Assembly: GCA_002633005.1 (NCBI GenBank)
Contig: NMRA01000840.1
Span: 78,196-121,216, forward strand
Length of the DNA: 43,021 nt
DNA from: Phoronis australis
Taxonomy: Eukaryota > Animalia > Phoronida
Reading direction: 5' to 3'
Shown: in pieces, positions 2,478 to 41,780 of the stretch
Layout: each line of letters opens with the position of its first letter
Numbering within the stretch: position 1 is the stretch's first letter
Made by a program: the position numbers and the translations under genes
Notes under the pieces: generated by a model
What the model saw: the letters and a program-made list of their open reading frames with translations, nothing else
Databases searched by the model: none
What the model was told of the DNA's origin: nothing

Positions 2478-3633
2478 GGCGGATTGGGGGGGGGGGGAGC
2501 NGCAAGAAAAATGAAACAGCAACAGTGCGAAGCGTGAGGGAATATTGAGTTCAGTATCTAGGACCGGTCCGCTGCGACCTGGGGTCTGACCCTCCTCCCA
2601 CAACCGTGTTCCCGTTTGCTTTTTTTAGTCCAACGACAGGGGTTCTGGACAGAAGGACCACATCCCCCGGCCCCAGAACTTGAGCCGCCTGTGCAGATAC
2701 AATCGCGCTTTGCCCAATTCCCCGAGGCAACGTGTAGCCCCTCTTATGGTATCTTAGATCCGCCACTGTGAGTTATCACAATGCAAAGCCTACACGTTTT
2801 CACTAGATGCAGGATCACTTGTGATACAGCTCTTGTGTTTGCAGGGCATATTGTAAAAAGACATTTTCACCAAATTTTATAAAAAAAATGATCTGAAGGA
2901 TATTCTCGTAACTTTGTTGTTTTCTCATTTCCCTGATGACGTTGGTTATCATCCAAAATTTGAGAAAATTTGCAGTCTTTATTTTATCTCAATGCTTCTT
3001 AGAAAATATGATATAAAACGCAGTCGTGTCGAAGTATAAAGAATACAAACGAAAAAAAATTGCTTGAATACGGTTTCGCTCTATAGAAGTTATCAATCTG
3101 AAAAGCATTATAAAGTTTCCGCGGTTATTCCGTGTAGCCTAGTCAGTCAAGGTCAATTTTTAGGCGAATCGTTCACTTTCTGAAAAAATTGTGGACATTT
3201 TATGAATATTGTCCGAGTTTCAAACACTGTTGAGCAACATCGACGAAGGAAGGTCTATGCACGTCATAAGGCAAACCGTTATGTAATTATGGAACACTTA
3301 GAAGTTGTCAACTGCTTCTGGGAGTTTTTTAATGCCACTTCTTGAGTATATTTCAAGAATCACACAGGCTGACAACGAATAATCATTGTTTGTTGGAAAA
3401 GTATTCAGAGAACATATGAGGGCATATGAAACATTTAAAATCCTAGAAGACTTTTGATGTTTTCAGCCGCTCGTAATTCCCATAGTTTTAGTCTGTTTTC
3501 GGGGTGATTCTTTGGTATTAAAGCTGTAGATTTTTCGAAAGTGGTTGGTAATAACATAAATCTCTAAGTAATACTTTGCGATAAAGCACTAATTCTTATT
3601 GTTGGATATCAAGGCATTTTCTATACAGAATAA

Positions 3634-3971
3634 TTATGTTTTCATGCACTGCACGGCGCTGATGACTCCTGGATACTTTTCCAAAAGGCTTTGTTTCAAT
3701 GTGTTGCACGCGGTGGTCTCAATTGTGCTGTTAACCTTAGTAAAGACAGCAGTGACAAGAAACTGAACTGGGTGGCGGGGTCTCTGTGTGGTTGGAGGTT
3801 GCGTGGTTGGGGGTTGTGTTGTTGGAGGTTGCGTTGTCGGAGGTTGCGTTGTCGGAGGTTGCGTTGTCGGAGGCTGCGTTGTCGGAGGCTGCGTTGTCGG
3901 AGGTTGCGTTGTCGGAGGTTGCGTTGTTGGCGGCTGCGTTGTTGGAGGTTGCTGTGTTGTTATTTCGTTAC
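3634..3971 (-). CDS. Coding exon 17 (terminal): Pro/Thr mucin-like stalk and two-Cys tail
   Basis: tttttatag|GT NEITTQQ(PPTTQ)x11 RPRHP...SAVQCMKT*. The T+GT junction restores the last Sushi Cys. Confidence 0.82.
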
Positions 3972-6900
3972 CTATAAAAATCATCATACAATAAAATTAT
4001 AAAACTATTTAATATATCTTAAAAGTTAATAACTATGTCTCTTACTCCGCGGGAAATCAGCGATGGGACTTTCAAGTCTGATTGAATAAGTTTAAAATGC
4101 AATTAACGTTGCGAAACAAACCTAAGACATGAAAATGCATACAGAAATACTTAAACATAGGTGTACCGGGCTAGAAATATGAAGAGGACGTGCGTGAACA
4201 GTTGCCACACAGGGTAGAGGAGGTCGAGAGGCATCTGCAACAATGGTTTGGGATTACAGTCAATTATAATCTTTCAGATATTACTTGGATATTACAATAT
4301 ACCTGTGGTGTTTTCTGTAGGGAAATTGAGGTTTAAAAGAAACTTATATTTCACGCTAACCTTAGTCTTATTTTTAAAGAGTTGTGTTTAAGTGAAAAGG
4401 TGCTTTTGTCCAAAATTGCAGATTTCAAGTCAAAATTAGTATCAAAAAGAAACAATACCAGAACAACTATAGCCCGAAGAAATCTTATGATTCCAATTTT
4501 ATGACACTAAAAGGCCTCAATTATATTTCCGCTTTTTAGCCAACTGAACAAACGAAAATGCAGCATTGCCCAAAATTATTGCATGGGATTAGTACGTACA
4601 TTGTGGAGTAGCAGTGGATTCCCAGGTGCCATTGATAAGACATCTCACGTTTTTTATTCCCTGAAGTTCAAAGCCGTCATAGCACGAGTAAGTCGCTTGA
4701 CTGCCAAAACTTGTTGAAGCATTGAAGTACGACACGATTCCGTTAACCGGCGCTGACAATGGTTCGCAGTCGAAGACTACAACAATAATTTACATGTCGC
4801 TGGGTTTACATTAAACAAAATTCCATTGAACAATTATAAATGAGAAGACAACATGACACTCTTGGGAATGAAAGTTTAGGTCGATCAAACTTCCATAGAA
4901 CCTTGACCCTCCCTCCATCCCTCCATTCACCCTCCCTCACTCATTCCCGCTCTCCGTCGGTCTCGTTCTATCTCTCTTACTATTGAAATTTCCTCAGACT
5001 TGTTCAGAAAGGCAGAACAAATCACAAACGACATGAGGCTGGTTCTCTCTTTACAAAAATCTACCAGTCAAATAAAATGCACGTTTTCATTCCAGAGTTG
5101 TAGTTAAAGGGACAGATGGCGTTTCGGCCATAAAATTAAAAACATTATTATTTGGCCTGTCAAACTTCCTGACATTGATAGCTTTGACTAGAGTTTCAAT
5201 ACAAAAATCATGCTTCGTACATTTCCCACTACGAAGAAGTATCCGCCAACAAAACCAGTGGCTGCAGCTAATAACGCGTGAGAATTTCGATCCTAGCCTG
5301 CGTCAAAAAGCGAAAATTAATTAGCTAACTTAAACTAAACAAATAGTGGGGCGGCAGAGAGTGGTAGTTATTCCCCCTGCTTGTGAATTATTGAAGCCCT
5401 ATATGCACGTTTTAACTGACGTTCCGTCCAACAAATCCGAGTCGGCATCAATCGGAAGACACTTTCGTGCTCTAGTTAGTCTAGAGAGCGCCAAAATGAA
5501 AAATCTCCTATAACTATATACAGTTAGTGGTTCACTATTTCAAAAAAACAAGCGAATTTAATTCCACTGTTAGTCCCCTGTTGTTTTATTAGTTTAAGTT
5601 TTCTAATTTATTGAACCTTTCTGACACCTGCTGGGATCGAAATTCTTCTGCTTCATTAGCCACAGCCACTGCGTCTTTTCCAGGACTCAGTAACTTGTTC
5701 CCAGCTTTGTTGCAGATTTTTCTTTGCAAAGGGAAATGTATGGAATGTGATTTCCTTGTTCATCCATTGGTATTTCAGAAGTTTGACATTTTCTAAATGG
5801 CATTAGTACACCCCACCGCACTTCAGTGGAAATTTACTGGCAATACTACAGCAGGAAAGGTGTTAAAACGCTGAAACAATCTGTAAGCATTACACGGGAT
5901 CTGTAGGTGGCGCTGAACGCCTGTCCACCAACGACCTGATCGCCGTGTTGCGGGATAGTAAATGTCTATAAGGCGCGGCCATTTCGAAATAATTCAGCTA
6001 TTTCAGCACCAGCATGTCTACGCCTTAAGCCAGGACAGGTTTCCCGAAGTGCATCTGTTTCAGTTTTCAGTTGACGTACTCAACACTTACACTGTCTACA
6101 TGTGAAACAGCAACGTTTCCGGTACGAAGCCAGTCTGCAAACGTTGGATGGTGTATAGCCAGAGCAGTCGACTTTGTCCCCGTACTCACAATCTGGAAGT
6201 AGATAAATCAAGATTTATACAATGTTATGGTTATAACGCGAGAAGCATGGTGTCGCTAGTGTAACCATATTTCGACAGGAAGTTTCAAGACACGACATTT
6301 CGTTTTCGCCGTGACTCTCTCTCTCTCTCTCTCCGATTGGCTGCAGGTCAGATCTTGAGTCAGATGTCTTTGAAACAATTGCCAAGGTCAATGATGTCAC
6401 GTTGCCTGCAAGTTGGAATGTTGTATTTAGCAATCATGCCTTACCTGGACATACGTGACCTTAACATCAGCAAAAGCTGGCGCCGATGTGCCTGTGACCA
6501 GACATGTTACAGTATTGTGCATTGCCCCCTACTGTTCATTAATCTGAATCCGTGGCGGATCGATTTATGTCTTAAGTGAGATAACGATGTTTTCTAACGA
6601 AACTTAACGACGTGCGATCAAGTTTGAGAAAAAAAATGTTCTTTTCCGTAAACATCCAACAATTTCAAAGAGACTTACTGTAAAAGTTCTATAATCTTTA
6701 ATGAATTGATTGATTGCAAGGTTGCGTCTTCCCCAAATTATACTTATCCAAACACAAATTACCTTAACGGTAACTGAATTTTTGAAAATGATTCTCCGAA
6801 ATGTTACTGCTTTATTTCCGAATCAGCTAGAAACATGTACATGTATACATGTAAACGTACATGTATACATGTACACGTACATGTATACATGTACACGTAC

Positions 6901-9900
6901 ATGCATATATGTACACGTACATGTATACATGTACACGTACATGCATACATGTACACGTACATGCAACTACGTAAGCAAGTTGCTGGATAAATCTTGAAAA
7001 AATCGCGACAGATGTTGCTCCATCGACTTTGTCGAACTCACGACACTTTACCACGCAATTCCGTTAAAATAAACAATTAGCGACTGGATATACTAATTCC
7101 ACATGAAATTCCGACAAAATTTCGAAAATAACGCTATTTTATTGCGACAAATTTGCGACTAAGTTGCGAACTAATTACGGAAAGAGGTTCATCCAACTGT
7201 GGCAGGGTCTGGCGGAATTCTATCGAAGTCCGTCTTGTTTATTTTAAAAACAGCAGCTGATTCCTTCCAAGACCAGGCTCAGACTCGTATGTAGGAATTG
7301 TTAGCTGTATTTGTACCACTGTCTGTAGTTACAGGTCACACAGAGCCTGAAATAGTAACTCGTTTACTGAAAAACTTGTTGACATGAATTTGTATACTGC
7401 AGTACCCAAGGGCCCTCATTATGCGCCAGAGGCCTTCCTGAACTTAAACACCCTATGACAGCCCAAGATACGAGACCAAATCACGTGTTTTGTGTAAGCC
7501 AATCCTGATGTACCCGAGATTAATTGCGTATTCATAGTATGCAGGGACAAAGCCACATACCAAAATTGTTAAGTCTAATACACTCTCACTTAAAGAATAC
7601 TACAATGTTTTTAATGACACTAAATTGGCGTTAAATTTTATTTGTGTATTTTTACCCACATGCAGCACGGTTAACCATGCTTGTGACGTTAGCCGAGGAA
7701 GGTGGAATCTTAAACCTCCGTTTCGTAAAACCTCTCCGTTCACCGACTGACCGTACCTGGTAGATTCTCGTGTGATACGCACGTTCCGCAGCACTTGGCT
7801 CTCACTTTTTTTGTATAACACTCCCACCTCCCGATATCTGAGCATTTTTTGTCATAATCCTTAGAAATTCGACCAGGCCTGTCGCCAGAGGGACACGTGT
7901 CTGAAACAAAAAGACGTCGATTAAGAATAACCACACGAGACAAGATTATGAAAACCATTACGCACAACTGCACGCTTGACAATGACGTTTTACGACCTGG
8001 ACACACACACGTTTTGGAAGCAATCGCAATAAACAGTAAGAATGATCTACAAACACTGAAGGCAACCAGAGTCGAGAGTATTCGGTCTAGGTCACAATCG
8101 CTTCAACAGAGGAATCTCTGCCCGAGTGCATGAAACAGTCACAAATAGGGAATCGACCAAGTTCCTTAAATCTTTTGCTGACTTGATTCATCCTTTACCC
8201 ACAGACGTAGTTTTTTCTATTTTTTTTATTTCTCGGTTAGCTCCTCTGAATAATGACATTTCGTATTAACATCATTAAAAAACCCTTAATTCAGCCAAGG
8301 TAATTAGGGATTTGGTCCTTAAATCAGGAGTGTTGCATGAAAAGACCCCTATTATTTTCTACAATATTGAGAGTTCAACATAAACTACGCTCTCAATTTT
8401 ATCAAAGCCAAAAAATGACGTAGTAATGAGACTCAAACAGCAAAAGAAAGGACACTTAATGTTCTCACAAGCCCACCCAGTAGATTTGAGGAACTCAGTT
8501 GAGTCCGTGAGAGAGTAGATGAGGGCAAAGCCCTCAGACAGCTTCGCGAGATCGTATTATCTCGCCTTCTGTCCTTGCTGTGGTTGGTGTGGACGCGGAT
8601 CGAGGGCAGGACCTGGTAGGCCGGTGGTGGTAGAGGTGGTGTGCTTGATCTTCTTCTGGAGACGAGACGCTGGCTGGATGGCAACAGCGTTATTGACATC
8701 GTAGAGGTGGAGCTGGCTTGATGGCAACAGCTTAGAGTTGGTTCACATGAAGCCACTCAGTTGAGTCCCAAGCTATTTGGAACTATTTAATGCAACTGAA
8801 CTCAAGCCCCTGACCAGTTGCCCGTGCAGATTGCACTACGAGAGCATCATTCCATAGACCAAGAAAAAAGATTACGACAGGCAGGGTACATGTACATTGT
8901 CACACGCGTGTGCATGTAGTACTGGAGGTCGCAAACACTACAGTAGCTTTGCTGAGAAAAAGAGTCGTGAGAGAGCAACAGGGATATCATCACAACGCCA
9001 CTCAAAAGCCAACACTTCGCTACTCAGGACAAGTTAAGGCTAGAGAGGAAACGCTATCAGGAGCCTTGCCGTTCCCATCCAGTGATAGGGCACGAGTAGT
9101 TAGGAGGAAAAATGACCAGTGTCTCTGACGGCTTTGTTAATTAATGTGTTACGCAATTGCTGCGTAGTCTCGAACAATACATCCAGAATCTTGCTCGATG
9201 ATGCCATTATTAACATCACAGAATTATAACGAAAACACCGCTCGATTAAAGCTCAGTCGAGTGGACAACCTGAAATGAACAGTGATAATTCTCGCCGGCA
9301 GTACCATGAAATATCAAGATCGCAAGTTCTTATTCTAGAAAGCATTGAAGATGACATTTCAGTTCCTATAATTCTTTGCATGCATGCAGTAATATAATCC
9401 TGAGATTTTCTACCGTGGTAAAGACGCATTGACAGCACCTTCTTCAGTGTACTTACCGCTAGCCTTTGGAGCCCTCTCGTCATACACACAATAGCCGCGA
9501 AGACACCACTAAAACATACCAAATTTTAAATATAATTACTCTGTGAAAGCGGCCAAGACATATTACAATGTATGCACTTTCAAATGTTCTTTAAATCCCA
9601 ACAGATGTCACCAGATCATACATCGACGAGCATAGTCACAGAAATCTACAGTCGTAACACCTCGTTCAAAAATCCTAGATCAGACATTGTAATCGCCTGA
9701 ACTGCCATGCTTGGAAGCCCGAAGAGAACGTTAAAAAGAATACGCGACTACATTAAAGTTAACTTCGGCTTGAATTTCATTGAGCGATCCACTACTCCGT
9801 CTGTGGAAAAGATGGAGGATGATCTTTGCAGTCACGCATATATGAGGACGGGGCGATGGAGTTCCTTTAGTTCCACTTCAAAATACAGAACAGTTTTAAC

Positions 9901-12900
9901 GTATCAACTCAATATTTAAACTAGAGGTTGCATTTTTAAAAGGGGCTTTTGGTCATACTGGCATGTATTGAAAGTTCATCAAACCGGAAGTGTGGCGAGG
10001 TGAGTCCAGTAGCACAACGGCTNCGAAGAGAACGTTAAAAAGAATACGCGACTACATTAAAGTTAACTTCGGCTTGAATTTCATTGAGCGATCCACTACT
10101 CCGTCTGTGGAAAAGATGGAGGATGATCTTTGCAGTCACGTATATATGAGGACGGGGCGATGGAGTTCCTTTAGTTCCACTTCAAAATACAGAACAGTTT
10201 TAACGTATCAACTCAATATTTAAACTAGAGGTTGCATTTTTAGAAGGGGCTTTTGGTCATACTGGCATGTATTGAAAGTTCATCAAACCGGAAGTGTGGC
10301 GAGGTGAGTCCAGTAGCACAACGGCTAACTCTGAAACGTAGTTGTATTTGTATTAGTGCCTGCTTCAGGCATTATTCCTCAAGTCAAAAGCACATTGTTA
10401 CGTAACGGAACTGGGACTCGTGCATCTGCGGGAGTCTCCGCCGTTGAGGGCAGTTCGTTACCATACGTATAACTGAAAAGCTAGGGAACGCAGGTTCGTG
10501 TGGAAACCAAAGTTTTTGGAAGTGTTTGAGTGTATAACCCTTTTGGTTAGAGAATCTACTACTTTATCGATTTCATTTTTACTGAAATTGGTTGAAGGGA
10601 AATCACAAGACATGTAGTATGGAAAAATTGCCACATCAACAAAAGAGACCTTCCAAAAGGCACATTCCTTTTAATAATCAACTTTTGATAATGGCGAGCA
10701 AGCAGTTTTGTCAGTCGTCACTGATAACCTACGCTATAGATAAGCACTAAAAATGCTCCTCTGCTTGTAAAATCATATACTCCTTTAAAATGGAGGAGGG
10801 TTTTGGACCATGAAGTTTCTGAAAGAGTGTGCTGCTGACTTATGAACAGTGACAAGGGCACACCATGTCGTCCTGGTGGTAACAACTGAAATGGCCGACA
10901 TAAAGCCGAATGGCCAGTGTTTCGTTACACTCTGAAATGAAAGTTAATACAGCGGACGTCAGACGATGATACAAATGTTTACCTCTAAAAACAATTACCG
11001 TAAATTTTCGATGTTGCGTGTGGATCGGCTTACTGAAAGCATGGGGAAATCCCATGACAAGGGATCGGATAAGTGAGACAAAAATTAACAGGTCATCTTG
11101 GTATAATGCAGAAATGATAATGGTCGGTAAAGAAACAAGACTGAGCAGAGCTTGAGCAAGTACCTTCTTGTTTCCACATGTAGTACCGTCAGCCGCCACC
11201 AGTTGATGTTCCTGCAAACAATACGTGCGCGCAGGACTATAGCAGTACATTCTGTAGCACATCATGGCATCCGTTGAAGATCCCTAAAATAGCAATTGTA
11301 ACCTGAATTCCAAATATTCCAAATTTGTAGCAAATTAAAACCACACCATAACCTAACGCACGGTCTGATGGATAGGGTACTCAGATGAAACATAGCTCTC
11401 ATAAACTAAGCATCCTGAACCATGTAGGCAATCACTTCAGCGACGCAATTTTACACACTTAAGACGAGCATACAAAGTATGTAATTACCGTTATAATAAT
11501 TACTGACATAATAATTACTGGCATAATAATTACTGTTTTAATGATTACTCAATACCTAAAGTTATAGCCAAGGCTAGGGCTATGGATGTTTTCTGTGCGT
11601 TCTCTTTGGAAATGGTGACTTATAAGACCAGGCAAGTTATGGCTGGGCAGAAATCGATACAGGACATTAAAATAAATGATTTATTGATTGACGGAAGGAT
11701 GATTGATACTGTTGTACCCTTTGCCACGTTGTATACTTCGTCTATTCTACGCTAAAGTAATTCAAACGATCCTACCCCACAGAAGTATGACTGTTCGCCG
11801 TAGACTTGTTTGCACTGTTGGTGAATAGTATACTGCTGTCCAGGCATCACGCTAAGATAATTCTGAAATTCTGTTTCGTTGAAGACGGTGCTTGTTTTCA
11901 GCATACAGTTTATGCGGTCTCTGCAATAAAAGACGGAAACGAAGATAATGCCGTACGCGCGGGGCGTTTCGTCGAGCAGATTTTATTATGACGTCGATTC
12001 AGCTCCATAATAAACTGAATAAAAGTGAAGAGATAAACAAACGTGTGTGTCCAGGAATCTTTAGGCCAACTTGAGGCGAGGCGGTCGGACGGTAATTGTT
12101 TCTGCTTCTCTGACGTCACAATGATTTCCCCGCTTCTTTTCAAGTAATTCACAATGGAACTCAAATTTGTAAATTTCTTGTAGTTCATTGCAGTGGACCA
12201 CTTAAGTGACACTTGTACTTGGCCAAACAATCAAAACTTTAATTTGTTTTTGTCACTTGGAAAAGATATCTGCAAATGGACTCCACCTAGTTACTAATCA
12301 CAGTTTGGGCCTTAAAGCAACATTGGTGTGGATAAAAATCACTAAATGTATCTCATATTGACAGAGTCTACAAATATGGGAGTATTTTAACTTAACACAG
12401 TTAATTTTCAAGCCGAACTTCAGCGAAATTTTGATTAAAATTTAGATGAATTGGGCTAACCAGGTATGAGTCATAAAACCTTAGCAAGATAAGAAAACAC
12501 GAATTCAATCAAGCAAATGTAGGCCCGTCAAGTGATAGGTGAAGCTAACTTTTCGTGCCATATTGCATCACTGCGAAATCCCAGGCAAAACAACAAAAGA
12601 CCGATGACAGTTGTAATGAATAGGGATGTGATTAGGAGACCATTGCCTGCGGGTGTTATTCGCAGCTCTTAAAAGTCGAATCTCGCAGTGACGTAGGCAA
12701 AAGCAAGCCAATACGCCTAACATTTCGTTACGTTTGACAATTTATGGCGCTAGTGTGATCAGAGCAATGCTCATAACATCCTGTAGGAAGCAAATTTACC
12801 GGCGATGCCGCTTCAGACAGGTTTCACGATTTACCTGTTGAGTGACGCCACGTATGACGCCATGGCACTAATGGAGCACGAAGAGAAACGATATGTGTTA

Positions 12901-15900
12901 TTGCGAGTCGCCAAGTTGTACGGGTCGGGCAAATATCGCCCTAAGATGAACTGTTTACTGGGATCGCAGCCATTGGTTCCAAGGTTATCCACTCTTGCAC
13001 CCAAGCTGCAAAAAGATCAACGGCACAGTGCAGCACACCCGCTTGTCTTAACATCGAGAGCTACACAACAAGACGATTTCTAGAAGGAAATGTTACAGCC
13101 AAAACAATGTAAAACAGAGACGAAAACCATTGCTACTCATTCACCATGCCTTTAATAATTTGACTAATCCGAAACACATTTTGACAAGGCGTCAATCATC
13201 AAGCAATATTTGCAAGAGTTGTGATACGCTCTAACGCCACTCAATCTCAACTGTGTTCAGATATAATGAACAAAACGTTGCGTTTAACATAACAAGGCAA
13301 AGTGTTTCCTTATCAGCGATACAATTTTCTGCACATGATTCATGGGTGGGTTATCCTACCCGAAAGCAAGTCCTTGGGCAAGGAATGCGGTGCTACCAAA
13401 AGCTCCGGGTTCGTAGCTCATAGCCTGTCCTCTGTAGATTCCATTATACGATTTACACACGCTATCCGGTGAATACGTACCCAGTGAGCCAAGTAAGAGC
13501 TCATACCTGAAAAAGTCAAACGGGCGTAAGAGGGTTTGCTTTAATGTGGGGACATAAACAACTGTGACTACAGCATCTCCATCAAACCTGGGCCACACGA
13601 GTTCGTTCGGCCTACACTATCTCTATCACCGCCTCCGTCCGACACTCACTTTTCTTTCGCCTGCGCAGCACCGTGTCATTCGTCGATCATAGCAGTTTAA
13701 TCCAAGGCCGTAGGCCGGAGGGGGGTTCGACCGCTCCTCCGCTGAACTAGCCCATGCCTATCCGTTAAAGATAGAATACATATGGAAAACAACAAAACTG
13801 TTGCAGCTACTGGTACTACTAACTACAATGATGACTGGGTTAATAATAATTATTAATTTGCTTCTTTTCAAAGCGCTTCACGTAATCATCGTTCCGGACC
13901 CGGCCAACTTCGCCCGAGTGGTATTTTCCGGCGTAGTTGACAGGATCATGCTGACGATTAGATGAGTTTTATGTTACTCATCGGCATTGAACAAACATGG
14001 TGGTTACACTGTAGGGTAACAAGGGAGCCTAGAATCAAATATCTATACTTAGATAAGCTATTTAGCAGCGAAAGAGCTCCCAAAAAGTAGTGCGGGTGAA
14101 TGCTTTACAATCGAAGGACTTTGGATTTGAAAGTGTTCGTCAAGTACATCTTTTTCATCTAGTGTTCACTTCGGTTGTGGATTGGTGGATTGACATGTAT
14201 GTGCATACACGTGTTTGCGTTTCCGTCCTTTTAAATTCAGTAGAAGCCGACAGTAAGTTAACTATAAGCAGCCCTCGGTCGTTCCTTAAAAATTAAAATT
14301 TAACTGTAACCGTGTTTTCTTGAACAGAGAAAACACCGAAGAGCATGTTCACTCCGACAGTTATTTTATCTCAAAACTGCAGCCCAAGCAGTCGCTTTAG
14401 CGTTATATCCAGTTTCTAATTCATAACCTTGCACACATTGTCTAACAATACCAAGCTCAAATGATTAGGAGACACCTACATGTATGTTCAATGCTTGTTT
14501 GTCAGACAGTGAAGCCAGGATTCGTCTCCCAAACAGGAGTCTCAACCTCAAAATACCGAGCCACAGCGCTGATTACTCTGCTAAGGAGTCGTAACAGAAG
14601 TGAATAAAGTATAGTATTTGTGTAACCATTTGAAGGGTGTGTAAAAGTTGAATGGTCCTTCATATATTACAAATGAGCTCAGTTTCAATCACTGTCAATT
14701 GAGATTCTTTTTCTAACTAACGACCCTCACGGGTCAGGACTGCGGCGACCAACAGTTTAAAATTTAAGAAGACTGAATGGGGCTCTATGACTTCGTGAAG
14801 ACTGTCAGAGACAGGGTACTAGCGAGCTAACGACATTAAATTTCAACCCAGCCGTGTGCATGGTTCCGGTGGGTGAGGTTCAGGCACAGAGGCCCTAAGA
14901 TTTTCAGTCGCGCTGTGAAATGATGCAACCCTGACATGGATTTGAGGGTGGTATCTTAATTGATAGTTCATCAATATTCCTACTTCATATTTTTTAAAAT
15001 GCAATAACGTCCTCATTTTTCCGTGTTTGTAAGATATGCGGGAATTTTTGCATGCGCATTAAATCCAAACAAAGTATTTTAGTACCTGGGCGTTGTTTTC
15101 GGTATAGGTAAGTCATTCAGTGTTTCTAATAACCGTAGTATTTATTTTGCACGTAAACGAGAAAAAAATACACGAATTGAAAAAGTTAGATCTTTTAGTA
15201 GTAGTGAACCTTTGAAGCAGTGAACCTTGGGAATGGCGAACCGAATGATGAGCATTAGGCTGTTTCCATTTCCAACGTGACGTAGGCAACTTTAGTAACA
15301 CTCAATTATATACATGTAACTACATGTTGATAAAAAATTGTCTACTTATTCTCCGTCTAAATATTTCTGTCCTAGTACATGTAGGTGTAATCACTCCTGC
15401 TAAAGGAGTGATTTGAACATTTGGCAGGAAGTAGCGCAAAACGTTTAGGACCACATTACATTCGAATTGAGTCCGGGTCTTTGCGAGCAACCGTCATGGA
15501 ATCCTAATATCTGGTATTACTAATACCTTCTCATCTTAAAAAGCACAGAGCTGAGGGTCATCGTTGTGTAAACAAATTTCATTTGCCCTGATTAAGCTGC
15601 GCCAGCTGAGGGCATTAATGAAAACTCTACAGTGTCGACGTTCGCAAAATATCAAAGGTCCACCGTTCTAGAAATTCGAACCACCCCCTGCGCAATGCTG
15701 GCTACGCCTTGAATACCTACTGTACACCTTCGCGGATATGGGGGCTCTCGTCACCATAAGTATAGTCACACTTGAGACTTCCCTAACTTGTCGAATTGCT
15801 ATTTGATACATGTATCTCAAAATTTAAGCTGCGTAGGGCAACTTGAGATTGTTAACTAATTGTATAGATTGGCACTAACTGGGAGTTTTGTCACCTAGAT

Positions 15901-18900
15901 GTATTTATTCCTCACAAACAAAAATGTTTTAGAAACATGCATTCGAATGATCTTTTCTTCTTTCAGTTTTCGGTTAGTGCTTGCACAAAGCTATCTACAG
16001 TGTTTCTTCTTGTCACAGCATACATTTTTATGAGAAACACCTCGAATCTATTAGTATCTTCAAATTTTACTTCGAATGCGATAGTGATTTGTTCGTGCAC
16101 ACTTCACTCATCACATAGTAAGTATCTTGCAAAAAACGTGATTAGGCATGACCATGCAAACTCTCGCGAAAAATTGCACCCGCCTTAGGGTTAGGCCTTT
16201 TCGGTTTTGGGCAGATTCAGAGTCGACATGTTCGCGACTTCACCATCATTGACCGTGCATTATAATAGTTGACAGAGTTGAAAGTGCCGGGTCTTCATGT
16301 CTTTGTCTACAATATTGACGACCTTTCCGACAGCACTCGGCGATGTTGAAAGCGTCGGCAACTATGCTGTGATCATTTGATGATGTTGTTGTTTTTTTAG
16401 AGTCGTTACGGGTGTCATCGCGCCGTACATGTATCAGCTCCAAATTCAATTAAGTGTTTGTCACGGACGTCGCGTGGCCCTGATGATCGTCAGTGGGATT
16501 CACATCGTTGACATTGTCGGCTTTCAGCCAGGTGATTTCATGTCAGCGACGTCATCAGTGTTTGTGGGCTCGTGGTGTGAGAGTTTACGTCAAAGCTGCC
16601 TCCAGTTCAGTAACGCTAGGACCTCGCTAAAAAGCAAGACTTCGCGAGATTACGTGAGAAATTGCCGTGTATTTTAAATAAGAACACGTGACTTTGACTA
16701 GGTTTTACTAGGTCCTAGCGTAGGTCCTAGCGTCTACTGACAGTGGCGGATCTAGGATATCACAAGGGGGGGGGCCAACATTTTGTCCGGCTGTAAGCAT
16801 TTGCGCAAACTGAACCACGATTGTAGATGAGCATAGCACCGTATGGTGGGAGGTCGGGAGGGGGGTTTGCCCGCCTCCCGCTCAGGAAATTTTTCTGTTT
16901 TTACCTCTAAAATTCCTGAAGTATTATCCAAGAAAAAAAGGAAAAAAAAACAAAACAAAACACGGAGAACGTGTCAAACAGGAAAAACTGAACGTACCAA
17001 AGACTCGAACTCACGACCTGGCGGATAGAGAGCGCGTGCGTTACCACTACACCACCACGACTTAACTACAAATCTCACACTAAAAGACCTATTTGTTTAT
17101 GGTCCACAGCGTTTGCGCGCGAAACCTACTTCTTTTCGTAATGCTTATTACACGTTTTATATTTTGTGCCATCAATTGTTAACAAATTTGTCGTATTTAA
17201 AATAGTCTTCAAATGCCCAAAAGACCAAATCCGTTTTTCGTGTTGGCAATAATGACGGGATTGCTTTGGAAATCGTCTTAAGATAAGGTTTGACAAAGAG
17301 AGTATTGCGAGTTTCTGAGTGATTCACTTAGGCTTCGATTAAAATTCACATCTTACCAGCAGCTTCTGTTTTTTCATCGTCACTCAGGTTCCATTCTCTT
17401 TAAAAAATGAAGTAAATTTTCTTCATTGCACAGTGGAGCAGGCGACGAAAACGGAGTCGTAGTGCGCAGCGCCACTGCCGGTCGCCTGGGATATCGCGGG
17501 AGAGCCTATACTTAGCCATAGCTCCGTTACGAATGCGCCGTGTTCCGAATTTGACACTTGAAATTGGGTTTGAGCCCCCCCTTCCCAAAACACTAAAACT
17601 GCACACATTTAAATCATCTTTTCATCCGTATAATTTTAATTACCGGGGTTAATTAATAANATGAGAATGCAATTCAAGCCGCTATGCGATTTACCACTGT
17701 CATAAATGATGCTACAAATCCTTGGTTTACTAACAGCTATTAATAACGATTTTCCCATGCATCTATCTGAAACCAAGGAAGGGTCTGTCACCCTTGTCAA
17801 TCTTCAGAGGTATCTGTTAAACTGACAAGCGTGGTCTACGCTTATAAGGTAACTTACACTACATCAGTCCACCAAAACTATAGTATATTCCGCGACCTAG
17901 TGACTATATCTTTTAGTTGAATCCTGCCCAAGTCTCTCAAATGAGAGGAAAATGGTGCATTAACAGGGGACGGAAGGAATATGGTTATTAAGGTCACTAA
18001 AACTGCTGTGTTTCTGAAGCGATTGGGATGAGTTCATTTATAAGTCGACTCACACGTCTTGCACAAAACAAGGGACATAACACTGATAACGTTTCGACAG
18101 TTATCGACTCACCCAGTATTTAAGACACCGTAGTCGTACTTGGGGATTGATTTGCTGTTGACGCTGGTCTGGGTCCACTTTTTGAAAGCGGCCAGACATT
18201 CATGCCCAGGAATTTTGACGGCACCCCATACGGTTTTCTTGTAGTTTTCCGTAAACGGGGATGCAAGAGCAGTCTGTAGGAGAAGGTAATCTGTTAGCAC
18301 TGAAGATCACTGAGTAACCCAGTGAAGTCACCACATTACTTCAATATGTAACAAAGGGACAGCATGAAGCCCCGGTGTATAGCCACAGAACTTGACTCAG
18401 ATTCAGACTAGAATGAATCCAACCGCCAAAATGTGAGTAGAGACATGAACAGCGTAAGTGTACTCGAAGCGTGCTTTGCATTTGGTCAAGTGTAGGGTCG
18501 AGTTTTGAGTACAAAGATTTTACCCAGGCACTCTTGCTTGAAACTTTATTTGTAGTTTCCTCCAATTGTTTCAAAACAATCGAAAACCGTTGAAATTGGC
18601 GTAAAAGATGGCCAAAGCACCCAAATGTATAGCATTTGTTGAAATCACTCATGTAAGAACTTTCATCTATTATATTAATTAGTTAATATCAATCTAGTTC
18701 GTAATCACTTCGTATTAATTTGTATATATTTTGGATGGGCTCATCCATTAATTCCACCGTTGACAAATGAATGTAGTCCTACCTGAGCAACGTAAATGAA
18801 GGAGAGCTGTACTCTAAAGGAGTATCTCGCATGTTTTATACTTTGAAATCGGATATCGAGCTGAAATTAAAGGGATTACTCTATTACCTAGGTAGTGTTC

Positions 18901-21900
18901 AGTAAACAAATTGTCTTGTAAAAGCGTTCTCAAGCAAAAACAGCGCAAAATTAAGTACCTGTAAGTGAAAGGCTAGCCACGTACAGGTGTATTACAAGAA
19001 TATTGTACATGTATACTCGAGGATTTGAGAGCGTAACCAAGCAAAACGGAGGTCACTAAGTATGAAGTGATCGTACTTGCTGCTGTGATGTTAGAATTTT
19101 GTATTATCGGGCAAAATACACACACGTACGTGTAAATTACCTGTCAGACATCAGTGTGCCGTTGCATCAACGAATCACTGCCGCCGCAAGATTAAGGTTA
19201 TTGCGTCGGATCCAAGGAACGTAGGTACAGTAGTTCTAGAGGTTACAACGCGTGCTCAGCAACCAACGCTTTTTAAATTCATTCTAACATGTTCTAAAGA
19301 TTGCCTGAGCTTGGGTTTTATACCCTAGAAAAATCTTTATAATACTTAATAATGTATCAGTTTTGTTTTTTTTTTCTGTCAGCAAATCAGTATTTGTGAC
19401 AGTGCTTACCCCATTCGACAAATGACACATGTAATATTTTATGTCAGAGAGCGCGTTTTTCTGCTTTTCTTCGGATGTCGAACCTGATGCATCAGCCAAA
19501 AACCTAAAACATTAAAAGTGTGCACTTTATGAAGTAAGCGAAACTGTGATTAGTAAATTGTGTTTGGCGTTTATTTTCATATTGATATCCGGTCTAAATT
19601 ATACTGAAAATTGACAGGAAACAACTTCAAACCTAGTGAGGGTGTCGCCCATTTGCAGTGCGTTATAAGTTTGGATGAGAGAGAGGGAGAGAAACACATT
19701 GATTTACATTAAATTTTAATGAAACAATGATTAGATAATTCGATTTCAATTAGAAGGTTTTCTAAAGGTTATTGACCGCTAATAAGAAGGTCCCTTGTAT
19801 AAAATAAATAAAAGGAAATGCAAACATCAGTAGGAATAGGTGAGGAAGCCATATACAGTATATATATAACTTACTTAAGAAAACAAAAAGTGAATTAGCG
19901 CTGAAAACGACCGACACTCCAGGAACCCAGAAGTGGACTGTCACAGCTAAGGAGATTTTGGGAATGCAATTAGATACTTTTACATACATACATGAAGCAA
20001 TTTGAAATATGAGAAAGTGGATCGTAGTTGCTATCAATAAAATTGGTTAAGAACCCGGAGAAAGCTTGCAAAGAATGCGTTTTATTATATTTAGAGCAGA
20101 GACTCAGTCTGGTATTTCTTTGTTGCTTACAAGTCGAGGAATTTCAAATCTAATACAGGCTCTTGATGACAATTTGTTGAACGGAGGAATTAAAATTGTG
20201 GGTTGTATTGACGAAATACCAGCTGAGTATATGGGCAGAGGGAGTATTATAACTGTAATTTGATATATTCCGAAGGATTCTCTTCTGGGCTATCTGGATT
20301 TTCTTAGTGCTGCCAAAACCCCAATGCCATAGTTTAAATGTGGGAGGACAAGTGAATTACATATTAATTTGAGAGCTCGAAGAGGAAGATAAGATTTCAA
20401 TTTTTGTACGAGTCCACCTAGATTGATAAGTTTGTTTGAGATGAGGTTATTTGAGATGAGGTTTATGTGGGGGGGGGNNNNNNGCATGAGAAGTTTATGT
20501 CAACGGTAATACCAAGGAAAGGAAAACTGTTTGCGTGACATATTGATTTGCTATTTATATACATGTAAATGGTAGGAATAATACATTTTTAAATTTTCTT
20601 TTTGGGAGTAGTGGAAGATTAGTGGTGATTATATTGAGTAGCGCATATCATGTTTAGAAAAAGTTAGGGCCTAGACTACTCTCAATAGGGACTAAACCCA
20701 CGTCCCCGAAATCTCCATGCATCAGTACACTTTTCATGAAAATGTTAAATTTATTTTTATTTGATCTCTTTCATGTGTGACAATTCTTCCATATTGAAGA
20801 TTGAGCTATTACTTCAATGAACACGCTTAGAAAATAAGTCCTTTAATTAGGGGTTATTGTATGAAAAGGCTACCATCCAGTTTCCTTCAAATTAGGAACT
20901 CAACAAAATTTTTACTGTTAGTATAAATCAGCACTAAAACTTCACCAACATAGAAATGAAGATAAAATAGCAAAAAGTACAGTTGTTGTTTGCACAATGT
21001 CCAAATGCAACGCAAATTGATGCTCATCGACAGGAATTAGAATTAAATTTGAACTGGGGTAATAATTCAGCCATGATACTTGAGACATCAGTCATCAAAA
21101 CCATGAATTGTGATCCAGGAGCTAACGAGCGTGACGGACGATGACAACCCATCGTCACTGCCATTTAGTAAATAATGGGGATTTCGTACTATATTATCGC
21201 TTCTAATTCGAAGAAAACTGTGCCAAGTAGTCGTGATGGTAACTGATGTATAGATACCTGCTATAGAGAGCGAAGTCCACAGCCATAAAGAGCTCTATTG
21301 TATTTAGTTGCGGTGTTGCTCGCTTCTGGCGACTGTGTGAACTGTCTTCCCCAGTGAATGCAAGTCGTGAAAGTTGAGAGCTAACTGTAACAACGAATTG
21401 GTTTGTACAGAAATAACACAAGTATGCTACAGCGCCGATTACAGCAATAGCCCTTTATCCAGATTGCAGTAGGTCGAAACAGTCATTTATGTGGCTCACG
21501 TGGCGCCATAGTGTACGTTGTGTGGACGCACTCTACATGTACATGTTCTTACCTTAGGCAGATAAGGAACCTTAACATATTAAGAGCAATTCCATATAAA
21601 AACCAGATGGTGGGTTATATATGCAAAATCAGAAACTTAGCATATCAGCTGGCCTTGTCAAAAGAAACCTGAGTCTGAATTTTTAAGAGTTTCCGAGTTT
21701 TTTCTAACCCTTTTTACGACCACTTTGTACTTTTTCCGAAAAATAGCAAATAATAGTACTTGGAAGTAGGTGACTTTTTGTCAGCAACAACACATCATCG
21801 CTTCACGCTATAAAAAAATAACTATATAGCAGAAAGAAGAAAGAATAACGTACAAGAAAAACTAGTTCGGATGTATTTTTTGATTTTTTATGTCCTCCCA

Positions 21901-24900
21901 TTTTAGCCTACAAAAATGTCATTTTCACTGCTTATTATTAAGGCCATTTTTACGCATTTTTATCACTCTCCGAAATCTATATCGGATTTTTTTGGAACAT
22001 GAGTTAACTTCCATCTGTTACTGCTGTCTTTGTTCAGCCCAACGCAAGAATAAAAAATCTTGTCTCTTTCATAGTTTTTGTGCAGTCAGTTTTTTACATA
22101 ACTCACTTACACACTTTTCTGCCAATCTGTGACTGTCAGTTTGATTAAAAGACTCTAGGAGGCGCTACTCGATTGTGCAATTATCTATCGACCAAAATGC
22201 CAAATAGAACAAATATCATTCGTTTTGGTACATTAGTGACGAAGGAGATCATGGGAAGCTGTACGAGAGATTTTTTCTTCGCGGATTTTCAGTTTTGCTG
22301 GTGCAAAAATAAAAATTTGTTATAGGATTACAGAAATCAAAAAAGTCAATTTTAATGTACTTATGAGTTAATAATACAACCCCATCACCATCTCATACTT
22401 CAGAGAAGCAGGTTTTATTCTTATTAAGGGTGCCCATTACCCATTGCTTGGCCAGTTTTCAAACACCGTAACTGACTAAGAATCCCACGCACTGCCTGCA
22501 GTGCATGCTGGTCCATTTTCAGACCTCCTGGTCAAATCCCTGTATATGCGCATGAAAAAGTCTTCTAAAACTATTAGCAAAGTTCATACTAAAACTAATC
22601 AAGATCTTCGAGATCACACTTGAAAAGAGGACGGTGGATACGAGCAGAAGTGTCGTGTTATTGGACATACAAAGTGTCACGCAATGCTTCTTGTACTACA
22701 CAAAAGCGACCGAGCATGGTGGCAGTGCGCCAGTGGAATTTGCAATTTCAGAAAAATAACAGGTACGGATATTTACGATTGAAAACATAATAGTTTCAGT
22801 GATATCCAAGATACCGGCTTTCCAAACCAGTATTTAAGCAATTGGGTGTTGTTGCGACTTACCAGCTAAAAGTTTCACAATATGTAAATTCCGTTCATGC
22901 GGCGGACTCAAAAGCACAGTTTCTTGTAGGTATGCTAGGTTTAGTGTATGATGCATTTCTACACAACACTTCAAAAAACTGTATTTTGTTTGAAGAAAAC
23001 AAGAGCTACTGAAACACAAAGTCTTTTTATTTTGCTCAGTACACATGTCTAAGATAGACGTTTCTCAAAACTAGATAATCACTCCTTTAAAAATCTCAGT
23101 AGTTTCAAGAGAATCAATCATGTAAAAAGTATGCTTTACCAGTCTCAAACTGAACATAAAACAAAAAACGCTAGTAAAAAGTGACAGAAGATTTCAATGT
23201 TGATCATCAGTGGCTTGGATTATTTTCCCCAAACGGCCACCACTCAAATCTCTCCCCCATGGAAGCCCCTAACTCGCGTCATATTCCATTTTTTTCCAAT
23301 TTCGCCCAGGGTGGGCCCCAGTCCCCTAGCTACGATAATGATGACCACAACAATATCGTAAGAATAGACAACAACTAAAACATGTTCATAATTTCCTCGG
23401 TTTATGATAACTCATTCATGACTTCAAGCTCCAACTCATTCATTGAGGCAAACTCGTGGGCAGCAGCAGCATCAGCATCTTCAATATTCTGAATATTTCC
23501 GATTCGAAACGCGACAACCATACGGGAAAAAATCCAGCAATCTGCTACTCCGACAGCCACTCTTCAGAGGAGAAAACTTTTCTTTGCTTATTCCTGGCTT
23601 CTCGCATCATCTTTTCACAGCCTCAGCTGGCTGTTGTTTTCTGCCTGACTGTTCACCTTCAGAAAATATATCACTGGGTTAAATCTTTACCTTCTCAGAG
23701 AAGCGGACCGCTTTTCTAGTACTTTTCAGGGCCCTATCCTGCGGCGACTTGATCAATAACGTAAACGGGGGACAACTCAGGTGATGATACAGCTGTGGTA
23801 GTGGATGAAATCTCGGATTGTCTTGAAATGTGGTCGAACTGAGTCTCGTTCTGGAGGGATGATGAATGAGCACCAACATCCAAGTGCTCACTTAGCTCAG
23901 CATCTGTAGGAAAAGATTTCGAGCACCCATAGTGTGTGCATGTGAACTTCGAATGACGTTCACGGGATACCAGCCCCGACTCAACCCTTGGAGTTGTAAA
24001 ACACTCGAGTGTTGCAAGGTCAAGACTTTTCAGAGGCAACAGTTTACATGACTTGTTGATGACAAGTTTTCCCTCCCCTACTCTATGGGCCTTCCATGCT
24101 CGAATGCCATCTGTGGAATACTCAAAGTTTGTCAGCAAACTTATCCCTGGGATACTGTGCTTGGGGAGGACCTTTGGGGCATTCACACTACAGGACGACA
24201 CCTAACAGCCTTTGACATCTCCTCTAGACTCTAGCGCATGTTTCAGGTCGACTGCATTTTGAACGTTGTTGCCTTCATTGACGAAGTATTTGGCATGGGC
24301 CTTCAAGGGTGCGATTTTCCTGTCACAGATGTCTTTTCCCTTCTGACTTTCACTGAAGTCGTAACGCAGAATGGAGATGCCGGTGTTACCAGATATGTAG
24401 AACAAATGAATCAGAAGGGCGGCTGAATGGTAACAATTGGCATTGTCGGAGTGTAGGAAAGCTTCCGTTATTTGTGGATCCCTAGCTTTCACCTGCCTTA
24501 GCACATCTAGCGTTAAACAGCAAACAGTGAAAAAGTCTTGCTTGCAGGCATCTAGAGTATGGATGTAAGTATGTACCTGAAATACAATAATTATGTAAGT
24601 CAAATAGGTCAGCTAGTTTAAAGAACTACCTTATTATATCTTATTACCACCTAAACCGCAATCACGCCACTCAACTTCAAACATGGTTCGTCTCAACACG
24701 GTTATTATATCAGTAGCTCCTTCAAAACATTTCTAGGGAGGGGGGAAATTTCCCCTTCACAAAGATATGAAAATCATCCATAAGTACAAAATGGCTTCAG
24801 TTAAAATGAAGGCTTGTGTGCAAAATCTACTAAGAGAAAAATAATGCATCACTGTCAAGCTTTTGTTGGGAAATGGCAAGAAAAAGACTAGATATTAAGT

Positions 24901-41440: not shown

Positions 41441-41780
41441 ATGACTCTAAGCTCTATGTTCCTGAAATGAGGGTGCCGTGATTGTTGCTGACAGGCAACG
41501 GGACTCAAATTCGGATGTAATGTGGTACAAACAGAGAAAGTTCTCGCGTTTCCTCTTGCCAAACACTCAAATCAAGCTTGCACACAGCAATCAAGAATTA
41601 AACTTCATTACATAGTAGCACGGATATATTAAGTCGGAGAAGGACTTCACGAAATTTTTCATCTGATTGTATTTAGGTGATACTTAAGTTGCTTACATCG
41701 CTGGAAATGGGAACAACTCACTATTCCTAAGGCTCACTACTCCAAATATATATAAAATTTCGGACTCCGGTCTAATTTCT
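41441..41780 (+). mobile_element. Highly decayed LINE reverse-transcriptase fragment
   Basis: (D)DSKLY immediately after the gap (YADD-motif tail), followed in another frame by QRDSNS..MW and later EKD; multiple stops. Confidence 0.4.

Follow-up and report, generated by a model that had tools for sequence, protein, structure and literature searches.

The locus described here raises the question whether a metalloprotease-like gene in which the catalytic residues have been replaced still encodes a functional protein, or whether it is decaying. It lies in a window of 43,021 nucleotides, the whole stretch of Phoronis australis DNA that was analyzed (contig NMRA01000840.1). An initial annotation had described a 17-exon ADAMTS-like gene without stops, regarded as a case of selected loss of catalysis on a MIG-17-like chassis. 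Its observation is confirmed and its interpretation is supported by the present analysis, according to which the gene would be a real pseudoprotease. We consider it likely that this is an intact, transcribed MIG-17-like M12B gene from which the zinc site has disappeared, and that the product, predicted to be a non-catalytic pseudoprotease, acts by binding.

Gene structure

The gene model occupies the minus strand (39500..3634) and comprises 777 codons in 17 exons with zero internal stops, in agreement with the open frame claimed earlier. Profile matches to the six-frame ORFs run collinear on this strand, from 29778 to 6083. Exons 1 to 4 lie outside the region that was compared with RNA reads; they are modelled, and so are the signal peptide and the C-terminus. 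The candidate exon 1 (39401..39500) is the top match in a scan for an ATG, a hydrophobic core and an in-phase donor. It has an in-frame stop upstream, encodes a signal-peptide-like sequence (MYRAVPYPLLLLVLTLAPSCA...) and ends in phase 1 at the donor GAAG/GTAAAC. On the basis of this candidate signal peptide, the protein is likely secreted. The predicted exon 2 (29614..29729; YELIGFAKDDGPL...) starts the prodomain. It has an acceptor score of 10 and its ORF (29778-29506) matches positions 53-91 of the family profile, collinear with the rest, while its donor was picked by a frame-and-score chain search. The prodomain continues in the predicted exons 3 (29248..29325; QDVKFYQDVQNGAAMSIRK...; profile positions 93-118, 8.8 bits), also from the chain search, and 4 (28892..29078; TGEISLQEGTMFYGGDEYLVQP...; profile positions 121-167, 8.0 bits; donor ACG/GTGAGG). 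Exon 5 (21258..21384), with a predicted acceptor at 21384, contains the prodomain end, a furin-type RQKR site and the start of the mature protein (ATPQLNTIELFMAVDFALYS). This site directly precedes the mature domain (ATPQLNTIELFMAVD) and is aligned with the R/K-rich sites of the homologues.

The catalytic-like domain starts in exon 6 (19410..19503; profile positions 230-254), whose acceptor is joined to the exon 5 donor in RNA reads (21258 to 19503, 3+5 reads) and whose donor GGG/GTAAGC is predicted. Exon 7 (18783..18860; LDIRFQSIKHARYSFRVQLSFIYVAQ; profile positions 253-279, 12.2 bits) is predicted as part of the top-scoring frame-preserving chain, and read depth is low in both bins that it straddles. 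Exon 8 (18113..18273; ..ECLAAFKKWTQ..KYDYGVLNT; profile positions 278-328, 14.6 bits) is followed by exon 9 (13360..13506), the acceptor of which is seen in RNA and which carries the first half of the dead motif (..STAFLAQGLAF + GG). The second half (LGARVD), a cysteine, the Leu at the Met-turn position and FSSCS are encoded by exon 10 (12835..13005). In exon 11 (11776..11920; donor seen in RNA, acceptor 11920 predicted) the catalytic-like domain ends (INCML) and the disintegrin-like module starts; this module extends over exon 12 (11164..11283) and ends in exon 13 (9457..9508; WCLRGYCVYDERAPKAS; profile positions 524-541). Exon 14 (7757..7900; profile positions 539-580, 15.5 bits) encodes a first PLAC-like six-Cys module and exon 15 (6091..6192) a second one, which scores 21.2 bits with Pfam PLAC, below the cut-off of 26.4. 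Exon 16 (4600..4776) encodes a Sushi/CCP domain (Pfam Sushi, E 1.1e-12). Both junctions are seen in RNA for each of exons 12 to 16, as is the acceptor of exon 17 (3634..3971), which encodes about 11 PTTQP mucin-like repeats (at the DNA level a 15-nt tandem repeat of 10.6 copies), a tail of 47 residues and the stop codon. A hydrophobic C-terminal segment or membrane anchor was not found in the modelled tail.

Homology and domain architecture

The spliced protein matches a profile of 12 active homologues, all carrying Pfam Reprolysin families, with 351 bits (E 6e-109). The 243 residues of the catalytic-like domain alone score 118 bits, as compared to 2.0 for the top of 500 shuffles. Judged by whole-domain homology, this domain is an adamalysin/reprolysin (MEROPS M12B; Pfam PF01421 and relatives), as the first reading had proposed. 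Phmmer reported 18 lophotrochozoan homologues of full or nearly full length, of which 13 score 168-185 bits and five 125-152. Exons of the domain scanned singly gave zero matches to Pfam Reprolysin, and exon 9 by itself had no recognisable match in the searches made, including that with the family profile. Exon 10 alone matches profile positions 377-434 (19.2 bits), is found when the Lingula homologue serves as tblastn query (E 0.004) and has Reprolysin clusters at ranks 2-11 in a language-model search.

Among solved structures, the family profile comes closest to human ADAMTS-1 (PDB 2jih/3q2g), -5 (2rjq), -4 (2rjp) and -13 (6qig), with 111, 99, 92 and 74 bits, respectively, the match spanning the catalytic and disintegrin-like domains. 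All four are active enzymes, and no counterpart of their central thrombospondin repeat, Cys-rich domain or spacer was found in the Phoronis protein. The disintegrin-like module is recognized by Pfam ADAMTS_CR_2, collinearly in exon 11 (positions 1-22, 23.1 bits) and exon 12 (positions 27-61, 30.5 bits), and leads straight into the PLAC-like module in the profile alignment. TSP_1 was found neither in the 131 minus-strand ORFs of 3637-24201 nor in 14 exon peptides. Because the thrombospondin repeat is absent, the protein is regarded as MIG-17-like rather than as a canonical ADAMTS.

Caenorhabditis elegans MIG-17 is described as having a signal sequence, prodomain, metalloprotease, disintegrin and PLAC domains and no thrombospondin repeat (PMC4856095). 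The Phoronis protein has the same order, its signal sequence being modelled; this is a likeness of architecture. Similar TSR-less M12B proteins occur in other lophotrochozoans under automatic names, i.e., 'metalloprotease mig-17-like' in Argopecten irradians (P0019, the NCBI name from which the label is taken), 'ADAMTS adt-2-like' in Ostrea and Saccostrea, and 'ADAMTS 5' in Lingula anatina (P0025). They align end to end over the prodomain, the catalytic-type domain, ADAMTS_CR_2 and two PLAC-like Cys modules. TSP_1 is absent from the 13 lophotrochozoan homologues scanned, and some relatives also have T-rich mucin linkers. The Sushi domain of the Phoronis protein, in contrast, is found in none of the 13 (E <= 0.001).

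Loss of the active site

Minus-strand splicing of 13506..13360 to 13005..12835 gives ...AFLAQGLAFG/LGARVDNLGTNGCDPSKQFILG...RFSSCS. The first segment is preceded by the acceptor ...TTTTTCAG and ends at the donor CGG/GTAGGA; the second one has the acceptor ...CTTTTTGCAG and the donor CAG/GTAAAT. Across the junction the reading is YELLLGSLGTYSPDSVCKSYNGIYRGQAMSYEPGAFGSTAFLAQGLAF-G-LGARVDNLGTNGCDPSKQFILGRYLPDPYNLATRNNTYRFSSCSISAMASYVASLN, in which the Gly codon is split GG/C, confirming that the motif is divided by an intron. The 12 active lophotrochozoan homologues have HELGHNLGxxHD...C...YIM...FSxCS, and in the Phoronis protein H, E, H, H and M are replaced by Q, G, F, V and L. On the minus strand, the first His position is Gln (13376-13374), the catalytic Glu position Gly (13373-13371), the second His position Phe (13364-13362), the third His position Val (12992-12990) and the Met-turn position Leu (12944-12942). 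Within this region the G, the motif Asp (12989-12987), the cysteines and FSSCS (12887-12873) are retained, as the earlier reading had stated. The residues fall in the HE(L/M)GH(N/S/G)LGxxHD and Met-turn (Y/C)(I/V)M columns, both in a MAFFT alignment with 17 homologues and in a separate profile alignment. The columns of HExxHxxGxxHD read QGLAFGLGARVD, with G and D as sole survivors, and the Leu (FIL) occupies a column that is Met in all eight non-redundant active homologues. The TSR-less relatives from Argopecten, Ostrea, Saccostrea and Lingula keep HE(L/M)GH..G..HD and the Met-turn Met, the bivalve ones with one additional residue ahead of the third His.

The loss of the active site in the catalytic-like domain is, judging from the alignment, targeted. 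From 30 columns invariant in the eight non-redundant active homologues, 18 are kept and 12 lost, and all five catalytic positions are among the lost ones; random loss of 12 out of 30 would take in all five with a P of ~0.006 (our arithmetic). Of the 25 invariant positions without a catalytic role, 18 are conserved, and the four invariant cysteines, D208 and F-S-x-C-S are intact. Metzincin chemistry is described as needing three His/Asp ligands and a Glu (PMC4349717). Since the zinc site and the Met-turn Met are both lost, the protein is predicted to be non-catalytic.

Expression and splicing

Same-species RNA-seq contains at least eight of the 16 junctions of the model among those listed, all GT..AG and on the minus strand. 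Spliced, strand-specific transcripts occur in two of three runs (X5 and X6), with read depth on the strand expected of a gene in this orientation. Run X7 gave no signal at the gene, which indicates that its expression is regulated. The junction between exons 8 and 9 (18113/13506) is present in RNA (3+2 reads), so that the whole 4.6-kb intron is removed, including the N at 17660, where an exon supplying HExxH could have been hidden according to the initial annotation. Such an exon was looked for and not found, as HExxH is absent from every frame on both strands over 1..41600 of the window, within which the whole gene lies.

The junction between exons 9 and 10 (13360/13005) is not among the junctions listed, and rests on depth and homology. 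Exon 9 has a bin depth of 1.42/1.0, and the intron bin 13020-13283 has 0. The per-base depth of exon 10 is ~7, like that of exon 11; that of exon 9 is ~2.5, compared to 5 and 7 for its neighbours. With a length of 147 nt, exon 9 could also be skipped in frame. The splice score of 13360/13005 is the top of 21 frame-preserving pairs, in a tie with a pair that cuts exon 10 to 33 nt, and in the profile alignment the spliced protein fits the family gap-free through the junction. Altogether, depth, splice score and alignment fit indirectly support the join as modelled.

Constraint on the two domains

The disintegrin-like module has conserved all 18 family-invariant positions. Its identity to the homologues is 39-47%, vs. 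21-30% for the catalytic-like domain, for which no orthologue with more than about 25-30% identity was found. In the tree with the homologues, the terminal branch of the Phoronis protein is 0.27 for the disintegrin-like and 1.66 for the catalytic-like domain. The corresponding branches of active relatives are 0.75/0.69 (Lingula), 0.57/0.61 (Littorina) and 0.47/0.51 (Potamilus). The disintegrin-like branch is therefore shorter than in active relatives (0.27 vs. 0.47-0.75) and the catalytic-like one longer (1.66 vs. 0.51-0.69). The long branch would also be compatible with a domain on its way to loss.

Alternative explanations

Pseudogene decay is unlikely, because the frame is open, transcripts are spliced and the disintegrin-like module has kept its invariant positions and a short branch. 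A transcribed pseudogene, i.e., a duplicate drifting without its active site, would account for the loss of all five catalytic residues, the long catalytic-like branch and the low expression (depth 1-7). This reading is nevertheless improbable, as 777 codons over 17 exons contain no stop or frameshift and the introns are spliced at canonical sites. By our count, the five replacements moreover took at least seven base changes, so the loss must be old, though the frame is still open. Still less probable is an error in the model, in which another exon, isoform or allele provides a working HExxH, or exons 9 and 10 are mis-assembled. The missing 13360/13005 junction and the single-N gaps in the assembly would fit such an error; against it, reads join 18113 directly to 13506, HExxH occurs in no frame across the gene span, reads cover exons 9 and 10 and not the intron between them, and the alignment passes through the junction without gap.

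The least probable explanation is that the protein still acts as a hydrolase, with a metal or catalytic site of a non-canonical kind. In its favour, the Asp that follows ligand position three is retained and the Gln at position one is polar; against it, the general base has become Gly, two of the ligands have become Phe and Val, and the Met-turn has lost its Met. The ligands and Glu described as required in metzincins (PMC4349717) are thus missing, and already the E303Q substitution of the catalytic Glu, in whose column the Phoronis protein has Gly, is reported to leave MIG-17 unable to rescue (PMC4856095). A more serious alternative, though one to which we give a clearly minor share of the probability, is that the catalytic-like domain is carried along without being needed and only the C-terminal modules (disintegrin-like, PLAC-like, Sushi and mucin) are functional. 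The dead domain would then be tolerated, aid folding or secretion, or be clipped off as in sperm ADAM1/2/3; removal of the metalloprotease domain is described for sperm ADAMs (PMC11266112), which offers a precedent. A catalytic-like branch six times the disintegrin-like one and the loss of 12 of 30 invariant positions agree with this. However, 243 codons of the domain are still open, its four invariant cysteines and most non-catalytic invariant positions (18/25) are retained, and no RX[KR]R site was seen between the catalytic-like and disintegrin-like domains in the model translation. The reading as a pseudoprotease that would retain its fold is preferred.

Comparison with other inactive family members

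Among the ADAMs, ADAM2, 11, 18, 22, 23 and 32 and UNC-71 are described as M12B pseudopeptidases with substituted zinc motifs, which work by binding (PMC11266112). According to the same source, many of them have Q at the first His, as has the Phoronis protein, and they typically retain the Met-turn Met, which the Phoronis protein has lost. They are membrane-anchored and have ADAM-type disintegrin, Cys-rich and EGF modules, whereas the Phoronis protein is of the ADAMTS type and an anchor was not found. Pfam gave zero matches to these ADAM-type modules in the minus-strand ORFs and exon peptides. Because they are absent and the nearest solved relatives are ADAMTS and not ADAM proteins, the Phoronis protein is placed outside the non-catalytic ADAMs, and the likeness is one of analogy, not of membership.

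A second family member with a dead motif (FALDMLLGAEDD) is 'mucin-5AC-like' from Haliotis rubra (P0026). This protein is recognized by Pfam through ADAMTS_CR_2 only, contains a mucin region, sits on a long branch and was not reported by phmmer with the spliced model. It has zero replacing residues in common with the Phoronis protein and, unlike the latter, keeps the Met-turn Met and ends in a transmembrane helix at the C-terminus. The best tree does not support a shared origin, nor is such an origin rejected (AU p 0.119).

Proposed function

Because an intact gene continues to be expressed and spliced in spite of its replaced active site, the product is likely secreted and likely works by binding, without cleaving any substrate. 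After removal of the signal peptide and cleavage by furin at RQKR, the mature protein would consist of a zinc-less metalloprotease fold, the disintegrin-like module, two PLAC-like modules, the Sushi domain and a mucin stalk. Its place of action may be the extracellular matrix, with a role in adhesion or as a scaffold or decoy, and its contacts would most likely be made by the disintegrin-like and PLAC part, which is under strong constraint. Possibly, it occupies matrix sites that are used by its active MIG-17-like relatives.

Gene Model and Expression

The two halves of the altered zinc motif lie in exons 9 and 10 (13506..13360 and 13005..12835, minus strand), which are flanked by canonical splice sites. 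Joined, they encode ...GAFGSTAFLAQGLAF-G-LGARVDNLGTNGCDPSKQFILGRYLPDPYNLATRNNTYRFSSCSISAM..., the Gly codon being divided between the exons as GG and C; this is the sequence that the initial annotation had described for this splice. The intervening intron is 354 nt long and, if retained, places a stop directly after the Gly. The 13360/13005 junction is absent among the junctions listed in either RNA mapping, and the support for it comes from read depth, splice score and alignment fit. In the mapping of 11700-19600, depth is zero in the intron bin 13020-13283, with 1.4/1.0 and 4.5/2.2 in the exon bins. A length of 171 nt for exon 10 is required for its per-base depth (about 7) to agree with that of exon 11 (about 7.6). 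Among 21 frame-preserving pairs, 13360/13005 has the top splice score, tied with one pair that gives a 33-nt exon and against which the depth speaks. The model is also gap-free across this junction in the family alignment.

For the remainder of the gene, raw reads from three RNA-seq runs labeled Phoronis australis (X5, X6, and X7) were mapped on two stretches, 3500-22500 and 11700-19600; in the latter mapping, at 90% likeness, the extra reads are mostly from repeats. Among the junctions listed, X5 and X6 show eight minus-strand GT..AG junctions: 21258/19503, 18113/13506, 11776/11283, 11164/9508, 9457/7900, 7757/6192, 6091/4776, and 4600/3971. Junctions 6/7, 7/8, 9/10, and 10/11 are absent among those listed. 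Exonic read depth is nearly all on one strand. X7 shows none of the eight junctions and no exon depth within 3500-22500, and reads cover an intronic repeat in each of the three runs. Because X7 lacks these junctions, expression differs between samples and is specific to sample or condition.

The other junctions were modeled so as to keep the frame open, to score well at the splice sites and to match the family profile. The resulting model has 17 exons (39500..3634) and 777 codons without internal stops, the same exon count and the same stop-free frame as in the initial annotation. Exons 1–4, which lie outside the RNA-mapped stretches, and the 3′ end are modeled. Candidate exon 1 (39500..39401), reading MYRAVPYPLLLLVLTLAPSCA... 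and followed by an in-phase GTAAAC donor, comes from a wider signal-peptide scan; a scan limited to 36000 found no more than weak candidates. The G+C content of the window is about 40%, and the DNA is eukaryotic. At position 11232 the assembly has C and all RNA reads have T (9/9 in X5, 16/16 in X6), by our reading an amino-acid replacement in exon 12 (Ala to Thr) that sets the sequenced animals apart from the assembly.

Relationship to Lophotrochozoan Homologs

Short length and divergence put single exons of this gene beyond the reach of most search tools. Pfam Reprolysin was not matched by stop-to-stop ORFs or by the exact exons, phmmer of exons 8, 9, 10, and 12 against PDB gave no ADAMTS match, a word-based protein search with exons 10 and 12 returned nothing, and a language-model search with exon 9 gave no Reprolysin cluster. 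The same type of search with exon 10 placed Reprolysin clusters at ranks 2–11 (scores 0.89–0.76), which served as a lead only. Downstream, Pfam ADAMTS_CR_2 is divided collinearly between exons 11 and 12 (23.1 and 30.5 bits), and PLAC and Sushi match in exons 15 and 16, respectively.

An exhaustive phmmer search with exon 12 gave four fragmentary relatives, one of them a Capitella teleta model, and a spurious match to a repeat protein. When exon 12 and parts of the four relatives were combined in a profile, 27 proteins were retrieved from 982 candidates, including full-length ones from bivalves, gastropods, a brachiopod and a leech, with source names such as ‘mig-17-like’ and ‘ADAMTS adt-2-like.’ The public gene model P0002 (Capitella teleta CAPTEDRAFT_196314) has two disintegrin-like exons with unrelated sequence between them and no catalytic domain; it looks like a mis-modeled fragment of a family member.

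With phmmer, the spliced model scores 168–185 bits against 13 of the 18 reported long homologs; the scores for the remaining five are 125–152 bits. When matched to a profile built from 12 active homologs, it reaches 351 bits (E 6e-109) in a single alignment that runs from the late prodomain to the second PLAC-like module. The catalytic-like domain alone (243 residues) scores 118 bits, the best of 500 shuffles scoring 2.0 bits. On six-frame ORFs the family profile finds 12 collinear minus-strand ORFs from 29778 to 6083; exon 9 alone gives no match to it.

Loss of the Active Site

Zinc ligands and general base are absent from this protein. In the alignment, the zinc-motif columns read SHEMGHNLGAV-HD in Lingula, with YIM at the Met-turn, and HELGHSLGALHD in the active Haliotis members, with YVM. 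In bivalves they read HELGHNLGVIYHD, with one extra residue, and the Met-turn is YIM or CIM. The phoronid protein has AQGLAFGLGAR-VD and FIL. Over eight non-redundant active homologs, 30 columns of the catalytic domain are invariant. The model retains 18 of these, among them each of the four invariant Cys, the Asp that follows the third ligand position, and F-S-x-C-S. The 12 columns lost comprise the five catalytic ones (H, E, H, H, and M), three Gly beside the site, and four others. By our arithmetic, if 12 of the 30 columns were lost at random, those five would all be among them with a probability of about 0.006.

The extra residue in the bivalve homologs (P0010-P0017, P0019, and P0023; GVRDHD in Potamilus) lies between the Gly and the third His, and the Mytilus motif is HELGHNLGVIHHD. 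This spacing is unusual for a metzincin.

A second dead member was found in the abalone Haliotis rubra (P0026). Its zinc motif is FALDMLLGAEDD, and the Met-turn Met is kept. Pfam sees only ADAMTS_CR_2 in this protein, which also has a long mucin region rich in Thr and, at the C-terminus, a transmembrane helix. The public name, ‘mucin-5AC-like,’ conceals its protease ancestry. The best tree does not join P0026 and the phoronid protein, nor does the AU test reject a topology that joins them (p 0.119); one ancient loss and two separate losses are each possible.

Retention, Decay, or a Hidden Exon

A gene that has lost its active site could be decaying, or could regain the site from an exon missing in the model. 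The first explanation has in its favor the rate of the dead domain, which evolves about 2.4 times faster than that of Lingula. The terminal branch of the model is 1.66 for the catalytic-like part and 0.27 for the disintegrin-like part, compared to 0.69 and 0.75 in Lingula, 0.61 and 0.57 in Littorina, and 0.51 and 0.47 in Potamilus. These lengths were obtained from a trimmed alignment with fixed topology; a tree from untrimmed proteins had inflated branches and was set aside for the trimmed one. Of the family-invariant columns, the model keeps 18/30 in the catalytic-like and 18/18 in the disintegrin-like domain. Its identity to the homologs is 21–30% and 39–47% in these two domains, compared to 31–37% (21% with the dead P0026) and 33–46% for the active Lingula protein against the others. 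From the kept columns, the identities and the short branch it follows that one part of the gene is constrained at least as strongly as in the enzymes. Moreover, the dead domain retains its cysteines, and its 243 codons stay in an open frame. Judged from these comparisons, a drifting pseudogene would not give such a contrast between domains, which agrees with the initial annotation in its rejection of pseudogene decay.

The initial annotation had also considered that an exon hidden at the single N at 17660 could supply HExxH. RNA reads connect 18113 straight to 13506 across the 4.6-kb intron, and therefore no exon of this intron, including one at the N, is used in those molecules. There is no HExxH in any frame within the gene; in the window the scan gave only two matches, which lie beyond the gene, one at 42406 on the minus strand and one at 41648 on the plus strand. 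A hidden catalytic exon thus finds no place in the reads or in the gene. A tblastn search with the model found no second copy in the window.

Several intronic stretches deserve mention in their own right. The 4.6-kb intron contains a repeat (16180-18081) of which both strands are transcribed at 40–340x in all three runs, the gene itself being at 1–7x. The N at 17660 and numerous variant positions fall within this repeat, which matches no Rfam family; the entire window gives 0 Rfam matches, and 25 other long ORFs give 0 Pfam matches. A near-identical pair of plus-strand ORFs (9701-9919 and 9972-10223; ..KRTLKRIRDYIKVNFGLNFIERSTTPSVEKMEDDL..) lies on either side of an intronic N at 10023 and reflects a local duplication or else an artifact of assembly. 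Within the 7.5-kb intron 4, long minus-strand ORFs of 155, 136, and 102 aa (23737-25592) have no Pfam match and a weak hint of a C2H2 finger (E 0.052); they may be mobile-element remains. Finally, 12492-12755, between exons 10 and 11, has a depth of about 5 on both strands and several fixed differences, and looks like another repeat instead of an exon.

Comparison with Known Systems and Possible Function

Dead-site relatives of enzymes are common, and they are well studied in family M12B. The best solved relatives of the family profile are ADAMTS-1, -5, -4, and -13 (111–74 bits), above snake-venom enzymes and ADAMs. No thrombospondin repeat was found in the gene or in the 13 homologs scanned, and the protein is therefore not a canonical ADAMTS. 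The domain order Pro-MP-DI-PLAC, described for MIG-17 in the available text of PMC4856095, is common to this protein, and together with the missing repeat it bears out the MIG-17-like chassis initially proposed. According to the same text, the MIG-17 E303Q mutant is non-functional, whereas the phoronid protein lacks the catalytic Glu altogether; unlike MIG-17, it has an extra Sushi domain and about 11 PTTQP repeats. The initial comparison with ADAM11/22/23 holds as an analogy but not as family membership, as non-catalytic ADAMs are membrane proteins that typically keep the Met-turn Met, at least in the accessible sections of a 2024 review (PMC11266112). Those sections treat M12 pseudopeptidases among ADAMs only and mention ADAMTS once, with no ADAMTS-type case. 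Literature searches outside subscription journals gave, among the titles listed, no ADAMTS pseudoprotease and nothing relevant on an ADAMTS with an inactive zinc-binding motif; the matches listed for ‘mig-17-like’ were C. elegans mig-17 and snail omics surveys.

The protein would be secreted, processed at RQKR, and would bind instead of cut. The likeliest working surface is the disintegrin-like and PLAC part, given that constraint is strongest there. That the protein acts as a decoy or in localization with respect to active family members is a guess, made from the common architecture. The gene is not a new kind of system. It is conceivable, albeit doubtful, that it represents the first described ADAMTS-side M12B pseudoprotease lineage: a lophotrochozoan MIG-17-like family in which the site (here and in P0026) was lost either repeatedly or in a single ancient event, and in which the disintegrin-like module is more tightly constrained than in the enzymes. 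This would mark a switch from matrix cutter to a matrix-binding regulator or a decoy, in competition with its active relatives for basement-membrane sites.

Together with the dead abalone member, this gene indicates that a secreted ADAMTS/MIG-17-type scaffold can persist without catalysis. Automatic annotation masks such genes, as the homologs bear protease names, the abalone one a mucin name, and Pfam misses the dead domain. The gene is a natural experiment on how the disintegrin-like and PLAC parts in these matrix proteases act by themselves.
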